Source: a virus
DNA length: 64,000 bases
IMG/VR virus record: IMGVR_UViG_3300044615_000494
Reading direction: 5' to 3' (one strand)
Of the stretch, positions 9,691-49,612 are shown piece by piece. How positions within the stretch are numbered: position 1 is the first letter of the stretch; each line of letters starts with the position of its first letter. A model generated the notes under the pieces. The model searched no databases, was not told the origin of the DNA, and worked only from the letters and a program-made list of their open reading frames with translations. Position numbers and translations under genes: made by a program.

Positions 9691-10239
9691 TTATAAACTT
9701 TGACCCCAACGTGTGGATATTCTGTTCCAATCTATGATTTTCCATAATTGTTTTAGATATTCTTTCTTATCACTACCATAATCTAGTATCCACGCATGTT
9801 CCCACCAGTCCACCAATAGAAGTATGTCATTTTTAACTTCGTGATTAGTTATAGTTTTTATGGATCCGTCAGTAGAAAGATATGCCCATCCGGATCCTTG
9901 TATTTTCATAGCAGTTTCTTCGAACTTTTGCTGAAACTCACCGTAAGTTCCGTAATGTTTTTCTATAAAATTAGCGATAGGTCCATTGGGTTTATTGATG
10001 ACCCTTGCTTCACGGAATTGTTCGAACCAAATATTATGCAAGAACACTCCTGCATAGTTAAAATCCCTATCCCCTTCTTTGTTGTTATAACGTTTAGCAT
10101 AACCCTTTGCTAGTTTGTTATAATGAAGGTCAACGGTATCATCGCTCATCACAGGTTTAACATCTTTCCTTGTGAATTTGAGCGGGAATATTTCTATGTC
10201 TTTCGGTTTCCCTTCAAGCAGTGGTATTAATGATAGCAT
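9691..10239 (-). CDS. sod: Fe/Mn superoxide dismutase
   Basis: Metal ligands retained (LHY, LHNIWF, DWWEHAW); GSGW motif; start MLSLIPLLE lies 5 nt after TAAATA. Confidence 0.9.
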   Translation of the reverse strand: MLSLIPLLEGKPKDIEIFPLKFTRKDVKPVMSDDTVDLHYNKLAKGYAKRYNNKEGDRDFNYAGVFLHNIWFEQFREARVINKPNGPIANFIEKHYGTYGEFQQKFEETAMKIQGSGWAYLSTDGSIKTITNHEVKNDILLLVDWWEHAWILDYGSDKKEYLKQLWKIIDWNRISTRWGQSL

Positions 10240-10891
10240 TCTGATATTTATCGCGTATAATATCAGCACATAATCTATGCGTATCTACACCATAATGCTT
10301 GCCGTCAGCGGCATAATCAAGTCTGTCTATACGTATAGTCCTATGATCATAGGACTTGGTTGGGCCGAAAACTAATCGTATACAGGGAATGTCAATATAC
10401 ATAGACAACAACTTGTTTAACGTGAAGTTCCTGAACAAAAACATTCCCGATTCTTGTCCTTGGGTTATGAATTCTAAATCTTTGTCAGTCTTTCTCCATG
10501 GCCCGTATGGAACTACTAATGCAGATTCGCTCATCAATGTAGAGAATCTAGACTGATCCGGATATTGCAATACTAACAATTTGGGTTTAGGATAGGTGTG
10601 TAACCAGGTCATGACGTTGTAAAACAATACGTCAAACCCGCTAGCGGGAATACCTAGATTGTAATAATCGCACTGTAGTTCTTGCGCAGTAATATAAGGG
10701 TAAGTATCAGGAAAATCAAGTCCTTCACCCTCAGTATGACTACATCCTGCAAATAGTATATAGTTATTTAAATCTATCTGGTCTACATCTTTACATCTAT
10801 GACCAAAATTATTATATTTGAATATAATCCCGTCTTTGACAAGAGCATCATTGGGTCGATCATATCCTATGAAATTCTTGTTGAATTTCAT
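10214..10891 (-). CDS. Hypothetical protein, SGNH-hydrolase-like
   Basis: FAGCSHTEG, YNLGIPASG and C-terminal DGKHY resemble SGNH blocks. Confidence 0.5.
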   Translation of the reverse strand: MKFNKNFIGYDRPNDALVKDGIIFKYNNFGHRCKDVDQIDLNNYILFAGCSHTEGEGLDFPDTYPYITAQELQCDYYNLGIPASGFDVLFYNVMTWLHTYPKPKLLVLQYPDQSRFSTLMSESALVVPYGPWRKTDKDLEFITQGQESGMFLFRNFTLNKLLSMYIDIPCIRLVFGPTKSYDHRTIRIDRLDYAADGKHYGVDTHRLCADIIRDKYQNAIINTTA

Positions 10892-14278: not shown

Positions 14279-14857
14279 CTATTTATTCAGGTAGGGGGCG
14301 TAAATTTTTTCAAGTTTTGATATGGTGTGCGCACCTGTATCCGGATCCTCATACTGATCTTCATGCTTGACTGCGATACCGCCCGCTCCCCTCCAAGCAT
14401 TTAAGTACTTACCATAGTCATCGACAAGCACGTTTGGGACACCGCCCACAGTAGCATATTTCGCTTTATTCTGTGTGAATATAGCATGTCCGCTACTTCC
14501 GCCGTGAAACTCGTCCAACCAATCACGCTTTGCTTTTACGCTGGCTTGACTATAGGGACCGCGCAAAGGTGCGCTGAGTACTGTATAGGGTATCTTATTC
14601 TGCACTAACCATTGTATCACTTGCATACCCCCGCTTAATGGGTCTAAATTACGGAAAAACTCATAGACTTCTTGCGGGGTGCTATGTGCTAGTTCGTTGA
14701 TTTCTTTTTCTTTATCTGCTATGGCTTTCCAATGCTCTACACCGCTACGTTTAGACCATGCACCGAAAAAGTCTGCCTGCACACCGTCCATATCTAGGTA
14801 AAGGTGTGGCATTTTATCTTTCATTTCTTCTTCTTTCAAAATTTCACTTATACGCAT
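14279..14857 (-). CDS. HAD 5'(3')-deoxyribonucleotidase-like protein
   Basis: LYLDMDGVQADF, VLSAP and VLVDD motifs; TATAAATA-N5-ATG. Confidence 0.8.
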   Translation of the reverse strand: MRISEILKEEEMKDKMPHLYLDMDGVQADFFGAWSKRSGVEHWKAIADKEKEINELAHSTPQEVYEFFRNLDPLSGGMQVIQWLVQNKIPYTVLSAPLRGPYSQASVKAKRDWLDEFHGGSSGHAIFTQNKAKYATVGGVPNVLVDDYGKYLNAWRGAGGIAVKHEDQYEDPDTGAHTISKLEKIYAPYLNK

Positions 14858-14861
14858 ATGT

Positions 14862-15146
14862 CTATTTATAGACGTTTTTAAACTTTTCGGGCCGTTTCGG
14901 ATCAGGTAAATAGTCTTTGTAAGGTATAGGACTATTGTCTTTACGTATGTGATCCCAACTCTTCATATCATCTCCGTATTTGATCATGAGATAACTCTGC
15001 GCTTCTTCCGGAACAGTATGGCTGATCAATAATAGATAATATTTCCATCGAATACGTTGTCTAAAATACTTTTTGATAGTATTGTCATTCAATATATCTT
15101 CAAATTTGTTATCTTCTCTGTAAAATAGATAATTCATTTTTTCCAC
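14862..15146 (-). CDS. Hypothetical protein
   Basis: ORF in co-directional chain. Confidence 0.65.
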   Translation of the reverse strand: MEKMNYLFYREDNKFEDILNDNTIKKYFRQRIRWKYYLLLISHTVPEEAQSYLMIKYGDDMKSWDHIRKDNSPIPYKDYLPDPKRPEKFKNVYK

Positions 15147-16651: not shown

Positions 16652-17037
16652 TGCAATTCTTTTAAATCATCACGTATCTTGCCCTCAACAAACCAAAATT
16701 GTTTAGATTCATGGTTGACTAGGGCAAACTTGACCTTTTCAAACTTATAGATATGTTCAGCGAGTTCTTCTATAGTCTTTGCTTGGCCCATGAATCTTCC
16801 TGTATCCTTGTTATATAATAGTATACTATTATCTGCGACCTCAGTAAAGAAATTAGGTACTTTGATAACTCTAGTCTCTAGTCCGTTTGCTTGATCAAAC
16901 ATCTCTACTATCTCTTCTAGCGTCATACCGTTTTCTTCAGCGATCTTTTTGATGGCTCGGCGAAGTTTGTAGGTCATGAAAAATTGACCGCATACCCAGC
17001 CGGACGCAAAGATAGATAGCACAAATAATAGTTCCAT
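16648..17037 (-). CDS. Hypothetical protein with N-terminal membrane anchor
   Basis: MELLFVLSIFASGWVCG hydrophobic start 5 nt after TAAATA. Confidence 0.7.
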   Translation of the reverse strand: MELLFVLSIFASGWVCGQFFMTYKLRRAIKKIAEENGMTLEEIVEMFDQANGLETRVIKVPNFFTEVADNSILLYNKDTGRFMGQAKTIEELAEHIYKFEKVKFALVNHESKQFWFVEGKIRDDLKELQ

Positions 17038-17045
17038 GCTCATAT

Positions 17046-17534
17046 TTATTTTACTAATTGATCCCAATTATCCAAGCACTCGTCGTGCTTGATCCATTCA
17101 GTATTACCCTTAGGGGTATCCTTAGTTTTGATTACAAATCCCCAATCACGTACTTGAGGTCCCATGAAGAATAGTGTAGTAGCAGATCCTACATCTGGGT
17201 CCATTTCAAGCCAATGCAATGCTTTGCTACCGCGTATGATGATGCTACCCGGTCCACGCCAGCGAATCTTCTCGCCTCGTATATATTTTCCTATATACAA
17301 CGGGGTATGCTCATAGTAACCACCCTTAAGTATGATAGTCATATAAGGCCAGGGGTGGTCATGAAAAACAGGATCGTCACTACGAACAATCTTATGTAGT
17401 GTAAGATTGAACGGAAACCAGCAACGGTCCCTCAGAAATAAATAATACCGGTGCATATAATCTGCACCGGTCCGTCGATCATGTATTAAACGATATCGAC
17501 CAAGTTTGTTGAATAGTTTATGAAAAATATTCAT
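17046..17534 (-). CDS. Cupin-fold protein
   Basis: LHKI.RSD...HDHPW..TIIL.GGY.E...H.L...TLFF.GP...WGF. Confidence 0.75.
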   Translation of the reverse strand: MNIFHKLFNKLGRYRLIHDRRTGADYMHRYYLFLRDRCWFPFNLTLHKIVRSDDPVFHDHPWPYMTIILKGGYYEHTPLYIGKYIRGEKIRWRGPGSIIIRGSKALHWLEMDPDVGSATTLFFMGPQVRDWGFVIKTKDTPKGNTEWIKHDECLDNWDQLVK

Positions 17535-28565: not shown

Positions 28566-29978
28566 TTAGTCTGTGACTTTGAAAGAAAGAGCCTGGCTCA
28601 TGTCAGCCGTGCTTAGTTTAGTATATAGTGACACATTACCGTCAACTTTACCTGGCCACAACACTTTGAATACAAGTTTGCCGCCAACAACTCTAGTGAA
28701 AATTTGCATGAAGTTTTCATCTAGTAGTTCAAGAACCGTTTCTCTGAAGCCCGGAATCAATCCATCGTTGATGATTTTTACTAATTCTTTGGTCATGAAA
28801 TATACGACACTGCCGCCCGCTGTGCCTTTGCCCGGCTTCATAAAAGGTTCTTGTGTGAATTTTTTGAACTTGGCAGGGATAGGAGTAGTACCCTTCATCT
28901 TTATATTGGCGAGTACTTTGTCTACGTCATCGTTGCTGAACGGCATTAGTTTTCTTAGATAGTCAGGTATAGCATCTGGATAATGTTGTGATACCCAGTT
29001 CAAGCCCACGAATCCTTGTTTCACAGTAGAAGTAGAATTCATAGTACTGATGAAATCAAGACCGTTGCCGGGCTTAATCTTTCCCTTACGTTTTTCAACA
29101 CTTGACTTTAATCCACTCATTGCTGGAGCGGCACCGGTCGCAGTCTTACCTACGCCACCTTTACTACTGATCATGATAGTATGACCAGTCTGTGCGTTCT
29201 GTACGCCGTAACTGTCTGCGAGACTTGCGTTCTGCTCACCGGGGAAGATCAATAATAAATTATCTAAATTCTGAGACTTCAAGAATTTTAAGAATGCTTC
29301 CTTCTTGGGGAACTCTGCAACGTCTTTGACCATTGCCAATATGCCTAGATACTCGCCAGCATCGATAGCCATAGTCTTTTGTGTTCGTTCATCATATTGC
29401 TTGACCGAAGGATTTTGACCCTCGTTGATTTCTTTAGCAGCCTGCTTGATAGCCGCACCCAAATCTCCTGCTTTATCTAATGTAGGGTTGGACATGATCA
29501 CATCATATAACTTACCTGCAGGGATTTCTTTATGTGCGTCTAATGCGTCTTGTATCGCTTGGTCTGTGGTTACAACTTCTTTTTTCTTACCCTTGATCGC
29601 AGCCTTAGGATTTGTAGCGATGCCGATACCTATAGGCTGTACGTTGACTGATTGTGTCGCTTGACCAGTAGCCTTTTGTAGATCGGCCTTTTCAAATTTT
29701 TTAGTAGACATCAAGCCATGATCTTTGATTTTTACTTGTATGTCAGGGGCAGCAAACATTGGATTCTTTAAAAGAGCCTGCACAGTTTTTGTGACGACAG
29801 GTTCAAGTCTTTCGCCTTCACCTTCTTCAGGATAATACTCGTTACCTGCTTTATCTACGAAAGGTGTACCTGAGTGCAACTTACTGATAAAGGCGCTGGG
29901 TCTCCAAGTCAAATGTCTGGGATCAAACAATGCACTGGAATCTAGTGACTTTTCTGTTAAAAATTCTTTTGCTCGCAT
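28566..29978 (-). CDS. Hypothetical late protein (470 aa), possibly PD-(D/E)XK nuclease-like
   Basis: MRAKEFLTE start 5 nt after TAAATA; LADS...IMISSKG resembles a PD-(D/E)XK core. Confidence 0.6.
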   Translation of the reverse strand: MRAKEFLTEKSLDSSALFDPRHLTWRPSAFISKLHSGTPFVDKAGNEYYPEEGEGERLEPVVTKTVQALLKNPMFAAPDIQVKIKDHGLMSTKKFEKADLQKATGQATQSVNVQPIGIGIATNPKAAIKGKKKEVVTTDQAIQDALDAHKEIPAGKLYDVIMSNPTLDKAGDLGAAIKQAAKEINEGQNPSVKQYDERTQKTMAIDAGEYLGILAMVKDVAEFPKKEAFLKFLKSQNLDNLLLIFPGEQNASLADSYGVQNAQTGHTIMISSKGGVGKTATGAAPAMSGLKSSVEKRKGKIKPGNGLDFISTMNSTSTVKQGFVGLNWVSQHYPDAIPDYLRKLMPFSNDDVDKVLANIKMKGTTPIPAKFKKFTQEPFMKPGKGTAGGSVVYFMTKELVKIINDGLIPGFRETVLELLDENFMQIFTRVVGGKLVFKVLWPGKVDGNVSLYTKLSTADMSQALSFKVTD

Positions 29979-29997
29979 TATAGTATTTATTCAACTA

Positions 29998-31834: not shown

Positions 31835-32146
31835 TTATTTCTCTGCTTCAACTTTGACTTGCAATGGATAGCCCTGTGATCTGGCTTCCAGGGTTACTTC
31901 AATACCTTTTTGTTCTGCAATCTCATAAGGAAGCACAGCAACTACTGCGCTACCGTTATCATGAATATCTTTTGTGATAGTAGTGGCAGTATCTGGATTA
32001 TAATTGAAATATTCAATCAATGAACCAACAACAAATTCCATAGTAGTAACTTCATCATTCATATAGATGATTTTATACATAGGTGGTTCTTGTAGTGCGT
32101 GATTGACTTTGATATGTTGTTTTGTTTCTGGATGTGCGTTTGCCAT
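31835..32146 (-). CDS. clpS: ClpS N-degron adaptor
   Basis: P.MYKIIYMNDEVTTMEFVV..L...F...IH..G.AVVA...YEIAE.K...YPL; start MANAH with AAGGA RBS. Confidence 0.92.
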   Translation of the reverse strand: MANAHPETKQHIKVNHALQEPPMYKIIYMNDEVTTMEFVVGSLIEYFNYNPDTATTITKDIHDNGSAVVAVLPYEIAEQKGIEVTLEARSQGYPLQVKVEAEK

Positions 32147-32209
32147 TACTTTGTTTCCTTTGTTAAAGTGTTCGCAGCCTGATGACTGCGAACACATGCT
32201 ACTACTATA

Positions 32210-32656
32210 TTATTTATTGTAGGAAATTGCAATCTTCTTGGGTTGCAACTCGTCAGGTACTTGACGTTCAAGGGTGATTCCCATGATACCATTGTTAACA
32301 ACGGCGTCAGATACTTCTACATGGTCGGCGAGAGTAAAAGTGCGGGTAAAATTACGGGCACTGATACCACGATATAGATACTCAACATTACTGTCAAGAT
32401 CCACGCTCTGGCTACCCTCAATAGTAAGTAGGTTCTTATCCACAGTCACGTTGATATCCCCTTCCTTGAAACCAGCAACGGCCAATTCGATAACAAACTT
32501 GTTGTCGCTATGTTTCACAATATTATATGGGGGATAGTTTGTGTCTTTTTGCTGATTGGATAGTCTTAGAATTTCATCAAAGACTCCATCAAATCCGACT
32601 GCAAACTTGTGAATCGACGGAATGTCGAAGGAACGTAGTGTTAATGTATTTGTCAT
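32210..32656 (-). CDS. ibpA: Small heat-shock protein (Hsp20/IbpA family)
   Basis: YPPYNI, IELAVAGF, YLYRGIS.R.FTRTF.LA and NGI..I.LER..P. Confidence 0.95.
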   Translation of the reverse strand: MTNTLTLRSFDIPSIHKFAVGFDGVFDEILRLSNQQKDTNYPPYNIVKHSDNKFVIELAVAGFKEGDINVTVDKNLLTIEGSQSVDLDSNVEYLYRGISARNFTRTFTLADHVEVSDAVVNNGIMGITLERQVPDELQPKKIAISYNK

Positions 32657-32716
32657 TTGTTTTCTCCTTTATTAAGCAAGATGACTATTGTAGACCCGAC
32701 TATCGGCATCTACAAC
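32657..32716 (-). promoter_or_regulatory. ROSE-like RNA thermometer candidate in the hsp20 5' UTR
   Basis: 5' hairpin (UUGUAGA/UCUACAA plus CCGA/UCGG), then UCUUGCUU-AAUA-AAGGAGA: the UUGCU motif pairs with the SD with a bulged G. Confidence 0.7.
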
Positions 32717-32762
32717 AGTATTTATTATAACGTGTTTCGCAATAAATTAAAGTATTTAGGAA

Positions 32763-32984
32763 TTAAAACTTAGACTTAGGGAGATTTTGTTGGTCTATTT
32801 GTTTTTTCCAACGTCTTTTGGCTAATTCTCTAGCGAGTTTCTTTTTGACGCTAGGTTTAGTATATGTCTCTCTATCTTTAAGTTCTAATAGTAAGCCGGA
32901 CTCCTGCACCTTTTTCTTTAGTTTTCTTAGTGCTTTTTCTACGTTTCCGTCTTTGACTATTACTTTTCTACCGTATAAATTCAT
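32763..32984 (-). CDS. rpsU: 30S ribosomal protein bS21
   Basis: V.V.DGNVEKALR..KKK....G...EL..RE.Y.KPS..K. Confidence 0.9.
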   Translation of the reverse strand: MNLYGRKVIVKDGNVEKALRKLKKKVQESGLLLELKDRETYTKPSVKKKLARELAKRRWKKQIDQQNLPKSKF

Positions 32985-34198
32985 ATTAATGTCTCAGGAT
33001 TTTTCACAAGGTCCTGAATAATATTTATCTCCGCAACGTCACTTTCCTTGTATCTGCTGATGTTAAACATGTGGGGCATGAGTACTCGTTCTAGTTCGCT
33101 TTGTATGCCCCTAGCACCGGTTTTTAACTTAAGACAGTTATCAGCCATCTGTTCTATAGCACCCTTGCTAAATTTGAGTTTGATCTTGTCGATGCTGAAT
33201 AGATATGTATATTGATCAATTAGATTGTTTTTGACCTTGGTCATGACTTCGACTAACTGTTTCTTATCTAAATCCTCTACAGATATAGAAGTAGCGAATC
33301 TACCAACAAATTCAGGTATCAAACCAAATCGTGTCAAGTCGTCCGGACTTACTCTATCTAAGAAACTTTCATCAGTATTTGGCTTTACTTCAGCATTGAA
33401 GCCTATGCTGGTTCCCTTGATGCGAGACTTGACGATATCGTTCAATCCTACAAACGCACCGCCCGCTATGAACAATATGTTCCTAGTATCAATCATATCC
33501 ATCTTGCCGTCAGGGTGCTTTCTCCCGCCATTAGCAGGAATACGACAACGTGTTCCTTCTATCAGTTTCAGTAGTGCTTGCTGAACGCCCTCACCACTAA
33601 CGTCACGGGTGATACTAGTGCTTTCGCTTTTACGTGCGATCTTGTCAATCTCATCGATGAATATGATTCCACGTTCGGCTAGTTGTATATCTCCACCGGC
33701 TTCTTGTAATAACATAGCGATCATGCTTTCGACATCATCACCTACGTAGCCCGCTTCAGTTAAACTTGTAGCATCGGCTATGACAAAAGGAACACGCAAA
33801 AACTTAGCGGCTGTCTTAGCCAATAAGGTTTTACCGGAACCAGTAGGACCTAGCAACAATACATTACCTTTTTGAATCTCAAGATTATCCGGCGGATGCA
33901 TGATACGCTTATAATGATTAGCGATAGCGACAGACAAGGTAACTTTAGCGTTATGTTGCCCGACTACATGCCCATTTAAGTGATCATAAATGTTTAGGGC
34001 ATCTACATCTCTTAACGCCTCTAACATCTGATGTTGTTTCTCATCATCAGGCTTTATGTCTTTACTAACAAGATCGTGGCATAGATACGTGCAATAATCA
34101 CATATTGCTACCTCACCGGACACAATTAATTTTTTTCTTTTATCCTTATGGGTACCACAAAAAGAACAGGTTTCTAAATGTTTTTCTTCATCACTCAT
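32981..34198 (-). CDS. clpX: ATP-dependent Clp protease ATPase subunit ClpX
   Basis: C4 zinc domain (CSFC...CDYC), GPTGSGKT, GYVG pore loop, IIFIDEIDK, RDVSGEGVQQALLK, IGF loop, GARG. Confidence 0.96.
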   Translation of the reverse strand: MSDEEKHLETCSFCGTHKDKRKKLIVSGEVAICDYCTYLCHDLVSKDIKPDDEKQHQMLEALRDVDALNIYDHLNGHVVGQHNAKVTLSVAIANHYKRIMHPPDNLEIQKGNVLLLGPTGSGKTLLAKTAAKFLRVPFVIADATSLTEAGYVGDDVESMIAMLLQEAGGDIQLAERGIIFIDEIDKIARKSESTSITRDVSGEGVQQALLKLIEGTRCRIPANGGRKHPDGKMDMIDTRNILFIAGGAFVGLNDIVKSRIKGTSIGFNAEVKPNTDESFLDRVSPDDLTRFGLIPEFVGRFATSISVEDLDKKQLVEVMTKVKNNLIDQYTYLFSIDKIKLKFSKGAIEQMADNCLKLKTGARGIQSELERVLMPHMFNISRYKESDVAEINIIQDLVKNPETLI

Positions 34199-36495: not shown

Positions 36496-37487
36496 TTTTT
36501 TTTTACAGGACTATCCTGCTTTACTTCTTCTTTAACTAAGCCGCCGTCGGCAGTGAGTTCTGCATCCCCTGCTTTTGGCTCAATAGGCTCGCTTGTTTGT
36601 TCTTTTTCTTCAGGGGTTAATGGTAGATATCCTGCTGTGGTGGCCGGAACAAACTCTTCCTTCTTTTCAAATTCCCATTTATAACTACTGATTGCGGCGA
36701 TCACAAGCATCAATGCTAATGGGTCAAATACAAAAATCAATAGTATGATTACCCAACGGACGGCCTTTTCTAACAACGCATTGTCTGGGTTGTCACCATA
36801 TATCAATGCCGCGATATATTTTATAGGACCTACTTCTGCTTCAATCTTACGAAACTGAGTGGCTAACGGAGCCTTTTCTAAACTCAATGCCTGTATAGTC
36901 TGATTTGATTTTTCTATACGGGACTGTGCATCATCAATCTCTTTTGTATATGCCTGTCTATCTCTACGCTGTGCGGCTCTTATCTGTACGGATCTTTCTG
37001 CACTTGCCTCACTAGTGCCGCGATCCAGTCTTGCGGACACTTGAGCATCCATCTGTGATAATGCTCTGCGGGCAGATTCTATATTTTCGCGCTCACTGCT
37101 TATCAATTCACGCTGAATAGCGATCTTCTCATCGATTAAACTTATCTGAGCAGCCACATCGCCTGTAGGTATACCCTGATCCATATGGGCTTTGCTTAAG
37201 AAGCCGAATATGCCCATGCTTGTGACAAGTGCTAATACTGCTACAGCACCTGTCAAATATGTTTTCATCAACCATCTACATCTTTCCCAATATCGGTGCA
37301 ACCATATCGTTGTAACAATCTTGGCTACCTCGAGACTACCTCCCATGATGATCACGGGTATGACGGCGGCAGCGAATATAGCGGTCAAACCGACTACGCT
37401 ATACCAGGCTGCTATGGCACTGAGCGTTAATGCTGTGATTAACGCTAATGTAGATAGGCTAAATACTTTCCTTATTAATAGTGGCAT
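36282..37487 (-). CDS. Multi-pass membrane protein with long coiled coil (401 aa in 0 frame; about 537 aa if frameshifted)
   Basis: Three N-terminal TM segments, GFLSKAH, coiled coil, VGPIKYIA and IFVFDPLA motifs; start 5 nt after TAAATA. Confidence 0.85.
   Translation of the reverse strand: MPLLIRKVFSLSTLALITALTLSAIAAWYSVVGLTAIFAAAVIPVIIMGGSLEVAKIVTTIWLHRYWERCRWLMKTYLTGAVAVLALVTSMGIFGFLSKAHMDQGIPTGDVAAQISLIDEKIAIQRELISSERENIESARRALSQMDAQVSARLDRGTSEASAERSVQIRAAQRRDRQAYTKEIDDAQSRIEKSNQTIQALSLEKAPLATQFRKIEAEVGPIKYIAALIYGDNPDNALLEKAVRWVIILLIFVFDPLALMLVIAAISSYKWEFEKKEEFVPATTAGYLPLTPEEKEQTSEPIEPKAGDAELTADGGLVKEEVKQDSPVKKKLSERLKLSNLNLKLPRLDQIKSLSPSNLSSKLRSSLSQLNVKEKLSWKNLTNWSRSPILNLFKKLLPPKK
36495..36517 (-). 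promoter_or_regulatory. Candidate -1 frameshift signal: A_AAA_AAG heptamer with AGGA 12 nt upstream
   Basis: In-frame GTA AAA AAA AAG; 9-A run at 36496-36504. Confidence 0.6.
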
Positions 37488-37526
37488 TAATATATTTATT
37501 ACGAATTGCACCAAAATAAGTGCATA

Positions 37527-49009: not shown

Positions 49010-49612
49010 TTACGTTATCTCTATGAAATTAAAAATCTGTACTATCCTAGCATCTTCATCTTGCTCTCCGAACACCGGGCCTATGCCATGGAATTTGTTA
49101 GCAGGATATAGCAAGAATCTATTATAAACAATGTTTGATACAGTGTGTATAGTCCATTTATCTAATTGGTTAAATTCATTATTTTGAATAATATGCTTAA
49201 GATGCTCTTTGCTCAATGCTCTATCTGAGTTGGTTGACTTTTGGTTATAAAAGATAGTACCGGGGGTGTCTTCTCTGTTTTTAGAAAGATACAACACACC
49301 CGCATAATAATTGGCATCAACGGAATCCGCATGTAACAAGTTTGATGATACCGTACCTTTTTTACTAATCCTAAAAGAACCGTTATCCATCTGTCTCAAC
49401 TGGCGCATATTCTTATTTAGAATCTTAGAAATTTTCACATCGATCCAAGTAGGGGAATACGTATCCTTGCTCATTTTTCCTGGCCAAGGTGCATCACCAA
49501 ACTTATAGCCTGATGATTTTTTATCTTCGTAATATTCGGAAGACAAAGCCATATCTCTGATACTATCAGGATCATCATAGAAATCATCGATTATGATTAA
49601 TCCTAAATTCAT
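49010..49612 (-). CDS. 2OG-Fe(II) oxygenase (DUF6445-like)
   Basis: IIDDFY.DP, H.D (LHADS), AGVLYL, GT.FY, YNR...Y....FHG and R.VQ. Confidence 0.8.
   Translation of the reverse strand: MNLGLIIIDDFYDDPDSIRDMALSSEYYEDKKSSGYKFGDAPWPGKMSKDTYSPTWIDVKISKILNKNMRQLRQMDNGSFRISKKGTVSSNLLHADSVDANYYAGVLYLSKNREDTPGTIFYNQKSTNSDRALSKEHLKHIIQNNEFNQLDKWTIHTVSNIVYNRFLLYPANKFHGIGPVFGEQDEDARIVQIFNFIEIT

Follow-up and report, generated by a model that had tools for sequence, protein, structure and literature searches.

The locus lies in a window of 64 kb (64,000 nucleotides, the whole stretch of DNA that was analysed), which is itself part of a 100-kb IMG/VR viral contig. The CheckV completeness of this 100-kb contig is 27%, which implies a jumbo phage, and related viral contigs reach up to 260-360 kb. 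Four genes, clpX, rpsU, hsp20 and clpS, form a co-directional block on the minus strand:

32981..34198, minus strand: clpX, the gene upstream of rpsU
32763..32984, minus strand: rpsU (ribosomal protein S21), overlapping the clpX stop (ATGA)
32210..32656, minus strand: hsp20, encoding an IbpA-like small heat-shock protein (148 aa) and presumed to be the regulated gene (Pfam, NCBIfam, PHROG)
31835..32197, minus strand: clpS, the gene downstream of hsp20

The hsp20 product matches Pfam HSP20 (E 1.1e-17), PHROG 432 (E 8e-40) and, over its full length, the NCBIfam IbpA model NF008013 (120.9 bits, below the equivalog cut-off). The downstream gene is an IbpA-like small heat-shock protein, as the preliminary description had proposed when it placed the element in front of a phage Hsp20. 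ROSE-class RNA thermometers are known as bacterial heat-shock devices, and ROSE-like thermometers are expected in the 5' UTR of small heat-shock (alpha-crystallin type) genes; the element considered here is located directly 5' of the IbpA-like ORF.

The spacer between rpsU and hsp20 is 106 nt long on the minus strand, and the element occupies the part of it between a TAAATA late-promoter-like box and the hsp20 ATG. Its parts are as follows:

32713..32690, minus strand: hairpin I, the stable 5' stem-loop, in which G32707 is bulged and UAG forms the loop, GUAGAU(G)CCGA-UAG-UCGGGUCUAC, predicted at -9.3 kcal/mol at 37 C
32689..32682, minus strand: linker of 8 nt between the hairpins, read from the sequence
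32681..32663, minus strand: hairpin II, weak, the presumed sensor, from the MFE fold, conservation and the ROSE_3 alignment
32681..32674, minus strand: anti-SD UCUUGCUU, the 5' arm of hairpin II, predicted to pair with AAGGAGA
32679..32675, minus strand: UUGCU motif, paired with AAGGAG in the MFE fold
32677, minus strand: bulged G, unpaired in the predicted fold
32673..32670, minus strand: hairpin II loop AAUA, read from the sequence
32669..32663, minus strand: SD strand AAGGAGA, predicted to pair with the anti-SD
32664..32667, minus strand: Shine-Dalgarno (SD) core GGAG, 7 nt 5' of the ATG
32656, minus strand: hsp20 ATG, after a 7-nt spacer

The minus-strand letters read exactly as described earlier, namely a 5' hairpin followed by UCUUGCUU-AAUA-AAGGAGA, and the claimed pairing of U(U/C)GCU with the SD around a bulged G is reproduced in the RNAfold structure, in which the bulge aligns with that of Rfam ROSE_3. 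RNAfold predicts both hairpins. In hairpin II the pairs U-A, C-G, U-A and U-G are followed by the skipped G32677 and then by C-G, U-A and U-A; the lower C-G pair flanking the SD/anti-SD core (C32680-G32664) is kept, and GGAG is predicted to be approximately 72% paired, almost wholly with the anti-SD segment. The predicted fold combines the two characteristics of ROSE elements, a U(U/C)GCU motif imperfectly paired with the SD in the 3'-proximal hairpin and a bulged G opposite the SD, with the arrangement of ROSE_3: exactly two hairpins are predicted, of which the first is stable and conserved and, judging from the TAAATA spacing, would be placed at the 5' end. Hairpin I was rejected as a terminator, since no U-tract follows it and the terminator scan is empty there.

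The 96-nt leader (32654-32749, minus strand) folds with z = -3.56, a value that none of 200 shuffles equals. Hairpin II alone does not stand out in stability from its shuffles (z = -1.3; 26 of 200 are as good), so the single sequence proves nothing about this hairpin; what supports it is its conservation together with the family match, and folding energy adds nothing to this. A z value close to that of shuffles is how a deliberately weak sensor hairpin would behave.

In a local search of Rfam, ROSE_3 (RF02523) matches 32651..32715 over model positions 1-69 of 69 with 31.6 bits and E 6e-5. This is the only significant Rfam match, and it is reported at an E-value threshold and not at gathering; with ROSE_3 alone against the 100-kb contig, a single match is found (E 4.8e-6). 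The gathering cut-off of the family is 43 bits, which is above both the match in the window and that of Methylophilales phage Melnitz (34.1 bits), and at gathering thresholds Rfam has no match in the whole window or in 20 related loci. The outcome of the Infernal check suggested in the preliminary description is accordingly divided: the match to ROSE_3 is significant and full-length, but its score stays below the curated cut-off. Within the alignment the bulged G32677 falls on the unpaired G of ROSE_3, and the core of hairpin I agrees with the model base for base. The classical ROSE families RF00435 and RF01832 gave no match in the window at E up to 10. R1, a covariance model built in this analysis from phage leaders, has a single match in the window and likewise in the contig (86.6 bits). 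T[TC]GCT is present near 4 of 27 other SD sites in the window, which is about chance, and the full element is found at hsp20 only. The phage hsp20 leader is very probably homologous to the ROSE_3 type.

A weak match to freshwater-2 (RF02980) was also recorded at 32654-32749 on the minus strand (24.6 bits, cut-off 49.9). It is driven by the identical 3' end AAAGGAGAAAACAAAUG, the common part being mainly the ribosome binding site and the spacer, and the freshwater-2 motif may have its origin in related lake phages.

A protein-guided scan of viral contigs identified 185 hsp20 relatives, and nearly all of the best 80 loci (48-93% protein identity) have the order clpX-(rpsU)-hsp20-clpS in common. 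Among the relatives (loci L121-L199), rpsU is located between clpX and hsp20 in about two thirds and is absent in about one third; the leader accompanies hsp20 either way. The layout is shared by 57 distinct leaders, in all of which UUGCU, the bulged G and ATGAC are invariant (57/57). On a MAFFT alignment that was not fitted to the structure (A2), 10 of the 12 pairs of hairpin I are changed on both sides and 92% of the cells are paired; for the whole structure none of 500 shuffles matches the covariation score, and slid controls are about 45% paired. The SD helix, with 93% of its cells paired on the same alignment, is nearly invariant among the phages and for that reason uninformative, as it has no internal covariation. 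A second set of 55 distinct leaders, collected via the hairpin I core, gives the same picture for all helices. In MFE folds the exact ROSE register is reached by only 17-29 of the 57 relatives, the energies being small and the registers shifting. The reading of this leader as a ROSE-like element is supported by its retention in relatives with compensatory changes.

The core of hairpin I, GAUGCCGA(N)GUCGGGUC followed by TYGCT, was searched for in 185,579 species genomes, and in dozens of them, belonging to Pseudomonas, Azotobacter and their relatives, it is located directly 5' of ibpA; the same scan returned scattered chance matches in GC-rich coding DNA as well. The Pseudomonas-type ibpA leaders contain MTTAFSLAPLFR..., and two of them score 78.6 and 61.1 bits on ROSE_3. 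The phage model R1 gives 23-42 bits on leaders of this type. On a mixed alignment of phage and Pseudomonas leaders, hairpin II is 94.6% paired; one of its upper pairs switches between U-A (31 sequences) and G-C (28) from phage to Pseudomonas, and another varies between U-G and C-G, which corresponds to the U(U/C)GCU motif. The switch is supportive and not decisive, because the mixed alignment is fitted to the model and the change represents essentially one evolutionary event. It has previously been shown experimentally that the two-hairpin leaders of Pseudomonas ibpA are thermometers, in which hairpin II melts and hairpin I stays closed (Krajewski et al. 2013, PMC3669281). In the same study hairpin II conferred thermoregulation without the help of hairpin I, and repression depended on the upper G-C pair next to the core: in P. 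putida, opening this pair abolished repression at 25 C (PMC3669281).

The hairpin I core is present in two non-Pseudomonas bacterial ibpA leaders as well (L288:2696-2759, plus strand, and L255:5371-5439, plus strand, the latter from a Rhodospirillales MAG). The L288 leader has an AUGG loop, the same as most phages, and neither of the two leaders was recovered with ROSE_3 at E up to 0.1.

The phage leader and the ROSE_3 leaders of Pseudomonas ibpA share a common plan: two hairpins only, a length of about 60 nt and an IbpA-like gene downstream. Hairpin I is G+C-rich in both, has the same core and the same bulged G and is placed at the 5' end (in the phage, at the probable 5' end), and in hairpin II of both U(U/C)GCU is paired with the SD around a bulged G. 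Four differences can be highlighted. First, the phage has a TAAATA-type phage box where Pseudomonas has a sigma-32 promoter. Second, the upper stem of hairpin II is U-A/U-A in the phage and a G-C clamp in Pseudomonas, a difference predicted to cost the phage hairpin about 3 kcal/mol at 37 C. Third, the phage leader is AT-rich and reaches 31.6 bits on ROSE_3, whereas the Pseudomonas leaders reach 61-79. Fourth, the phage start codon may pair with GUCAU of the linker, whereas the AUG is unpaired in Pseudomonas. Classical ROSE elements (ROSE1 of Bradyrhizobium hspA and E. coli ibpA; RF00435, RF01832) have in common with the phage leader the U(U/C)GCU anti-SD, the bulged G, the 3'-proximal position of the hairpin and the small heat-shock gene; unlike the phage leader, they consist of three or four hairpins, and their long final hairpin also holds the AUG.

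The segment GUCAU (32685..32681, minus strand), whose last base also belongs to hairpin II, is the complement of AUGAC at the start codon and is found in 64 of 110 distinct leaders. The complementarity exceeds that of shuffled linkers (4.8 vs 3.0 nt), and 67% of the cells of this outer helix are paired on the mixed phage and Pseudomonas alignment; among the 110 distinct leaders it has no covariation, and the extension pairs are inconsistent. We hypothesize that an optional outer helix would bury the start codon too, as in classical ROSE.

Upstream of hairpin I, three candidate promoter elements can be pointed out:

32719..32729, minus strand: box TATAATAAATA, late-promoter-like (TAAATA at 32724..32719), conserved 5' of hairpin I
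32738..32746, minus strand: T-rich GCG box TTTATTGCG, possibly a promoter element, single copy in the window, present in 43 of 58 leaders
32759..32753, minus strand: CTAAATA, a second late-box-like sequence directly after the rpsU stop, 34 nt 5' of TATAATAAATA

A box of the (A/C)TAAATA type lies 5' of hairpin I in 57 of the 58 leaders. No sigma-32 promoter (CTTGAAA...CCCCAT-like) was found upstream of the leader, and the conserved TAAATA box is present in its place. The T-run and GCG box keeps a fixed distance of 19-20 nt 5' of the TAAATA end in the 43 leaders that have it, and reads TTTTTTGCG in most relatives; its position is roughly that of the T4 MotA box, but the sequence differs. A CC(T/A)AAATA motif, similar to the CTAAATA at 32753-32759, recurs in relatives.

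In the window as a whole, MTAAATA is depleted (28 copies vs 40.6 expected); 23 of the 28 are on the coding strand, many of them just before starts. TAAATA-N5-ATG is found six times where 1.7 are expected, always on the coding strand, and none of 100 shuffles reaches six:

10237-10250, 14855-14868, 17035-17048, 29976-29989, 37485-37498 and 49406-49419, all minus strand: TAAATA-N5-ATG sites, mostly at ORF starts

This excess suggests leaderless late mRNAs, and taken together the TAAATA counts are indicative of a late box of the T4 type, from which +1 would lie six bases downstream. The exact T4 box TATAAATA is found in 2 copies vs 7.4 expected, and the working motif is the shorter TAAATA. Judged by these motifs, transcription of hsp20 probably starts about 6 nt after TAAATA, near G32713. 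This residue belongs to the first pair of hairpin I with good covariation; the two pairs outside it are poorly kept. A start near G32713 would place hairpin I at the very 5' end of the mRNA. Conversely, a transcription start 3' of the UUGCU arm, which had been named beforehand as evidence that would speak against a thermometer, is unlikely considering the conserved TAAATA just 5' of hairpin I.

The position of hairpin I about 50 nt after the rpsU stop codon raises the question of whether it is a mere terminator of the upstream clpX-rpsU unit, the anti-SD match having arisen by chance. We consider this explanation very improbable, given that a conserved promoter-like box separates the rpsU stop from hairpin I, that the element is kept where rpsU is absent, and that the match to ROSE_3 is full-length and significant at E 4.8e-6.

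Evaluated in isolation, the phage hairpin II is predicted to gain stability on cooling, from -0.9 kcal/mol at 37 C to -3.2 at 20 C and then to -4.5 at 10 C; the Pseudomonas-type hairpin II has -3.5 to -4.3 kcal/mol at 37 C. The phage hairpin is predicted to be weaker because the upper G-C clamp is missing, and its stability at 5-10 C is comparable to that of the Pseudomonas hairpin at 30-37 C. On the one hand, these modelled stabilities fit a lower set point; on the other hand, it is equally possible that the hairpin is too weak to matter. In the nearest-neighbour ensemble the SD pairing is approximately 0.72 and nearly flat between 10 and 37 C, and a composition-preserving shuffle of the anti-SD 10-mer still gives 0.65. 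In silico melting is equally flat for validated-type Pseudomonas leaders and does not separate phage from Pseudomonas; as the whole-leader partition function is nearly temperature-independent in Pseudomonas too, it cannot decide function.

The main alternative that has to be weighed against these energies is a leader which is derived from ROSE but does not sense temperature in the range of the phage, so that hairpin I stabilizes the late mRNA and hairpin II provides a fixed, modest translational damping. Such a leader would agree with the lack of the G-C clamp, on which repression depends in P. putida (PMC3669281), with the -0.9 kcal/mol predicted at 37 C, with the flat SD pairing between 10 and 37 C and with the strong stem at the 5' end. 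However, not one of the 57 leaders departs from UUGCU or the bulged G while the adjoining bases drift, and this is tighter than a plain attenuator needs. In addition, the stability of the phage hairpin at 5-10 C, similar to that of Pseudomonas at 30-37 C, fits a lower set point, and the predictions are just as flat for leaders of the validated type. We regard the non-sensing leader as unlikely, although it is the principal competitor of a thermometer.

The strict invariance of UUGCU would also suit a binding site, and in S-PM2 the regA gene is located directly 5' of hsp20; a trans-acting factor, be it a RegA-like translational repressor of the phage or a small RNA, could in that case use the CUUGCUU/AAGGAG region as its operator. 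This seems improbable to us, since ROSE works independently of proteins (PMC3669281) and the leader agrees with it in motif, register and bulge, since phages of very different gene content, from cyanophages to jumbo phages, have retained the element, and since no candidate partner was found.

Taking the analysis together, we think it likely that the hsp20 leader is a translational thermometer of the ROSE family, and the proposed mechanism can be outlined as follows. Hairpin I, at the 5' end of the transcript, would probably protect it and help the next hairpin to fold. In the cold, UUGCU would be imperfectly paired with AAGGAG, with G32677 bulged, and the access of the ribosome to the SD would be limited in vivo. 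On warming, the weak hairpin II would melt and more of the IbpA-like chaperone would be made; we infer this temperature response, and likewise a set point below that of Pseudomonas. The supply of an IbpA-like holdase would in this way be coupled to temperature in late infection, where it could work alongside the neighbouring phage ClpX, ClpS and ClpP.

A phage-encoded mRNA structure that sets translation by temperature is already known in the cIII mRNA thermosensor of phage lambda. It differs from the hsp20 leader in several respects: the sequences are unrelated, cIII does not belong to the heat-shock genes and lacks a ROSE motif, and its mRNA alternates between two structures, with translation favoured at lower temperature. 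ROSE-like leaders of phage genes did not come up in full-text literature searches, which agrees with the statement of the preliminary description that it knew of no characterised phage example, and the leader is apparently an unpublished phage variant of a known RNA class. The hsp20 gene has been described as a core gene of marine T4-like cyanophages, and its regulation is not mentioned there (Sullivan et al., PMC3037559).

The same layout is found before hsp20 in four cultured Kyanoviridae, in each case behind a TAAATA-like box:

Methylophilales phage Melnitz: anti-SD CUUGCUU, 48 bits with R1
Synechococcus phage S-PM2: anti-SD CUCGCUU, 34 bits with R1
Pelagibacter phage HTVC008M: anti-SD UUUGCUU, 22 bits with R1
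Cyanophage P-TIM40: anti-SD CUCGCUU, 21 bits with R1

To our knowledge, cyanobacteria have not been reported to use ROSE elements, and their presence among the hosts of the carriers points to inheritance within phages and not to repeated capture. We tentatively suggest, as a reading whose chances we put slightly below even, that a ROSE thermometer of the proteobacterial type has become a heritable phage module in T4-like and jumbo lineages, including phages of hosts (cyanobacteria, SAR11, OM43) not known to use ROSE, and that phage promoters now drive it, that losing the G-C clamp has adapted it to cool water, and that it has found a further use before groES-groEL. If so, these phages would read temperature directly and set the chaperone supply during virion assembly. 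A conserved phage version of ROSE would mean that phages themselves sense temperature at translation and adjust chaperone output late in infection, and the leader offers a concrete and easily tested handle on the role and regulation of hsp20 in cyanophages. From the natural series of weaker hairpins, with U-A in place of the G-C clamp, it could be learned how a thermometer adapts its set point to the temperature of the habitat, and the same series would supply low-temperature thermometer parts for synthetic biology.

Two loci, L031 and L010, have groES-groEL as an insertion between clpX/rpsU and hsp20, and a second copy of the leader, detected with R1, precedes it:

L031:2708-2774, minus strand: second leader copy, 45.8 bits
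L010:5068-5130, plus strand: second leader copy, 41.1 bits

The SD and ATG of the second copy open only an ORF of 8 or 14 codons, and groES starts approximately 120 nt after the copy, behind a TTGACA-N17-TATACT-like promoter and its own SD. The second copy may have been left behind by the insertion, or it may act as a regulatory uORF. A further R1 match (38.1 bits) was observed in a third locus, L184:819-877 on the plus strand, about 2 kb 5' of hsp20, where extra genes are located between rpsU and hsp20.
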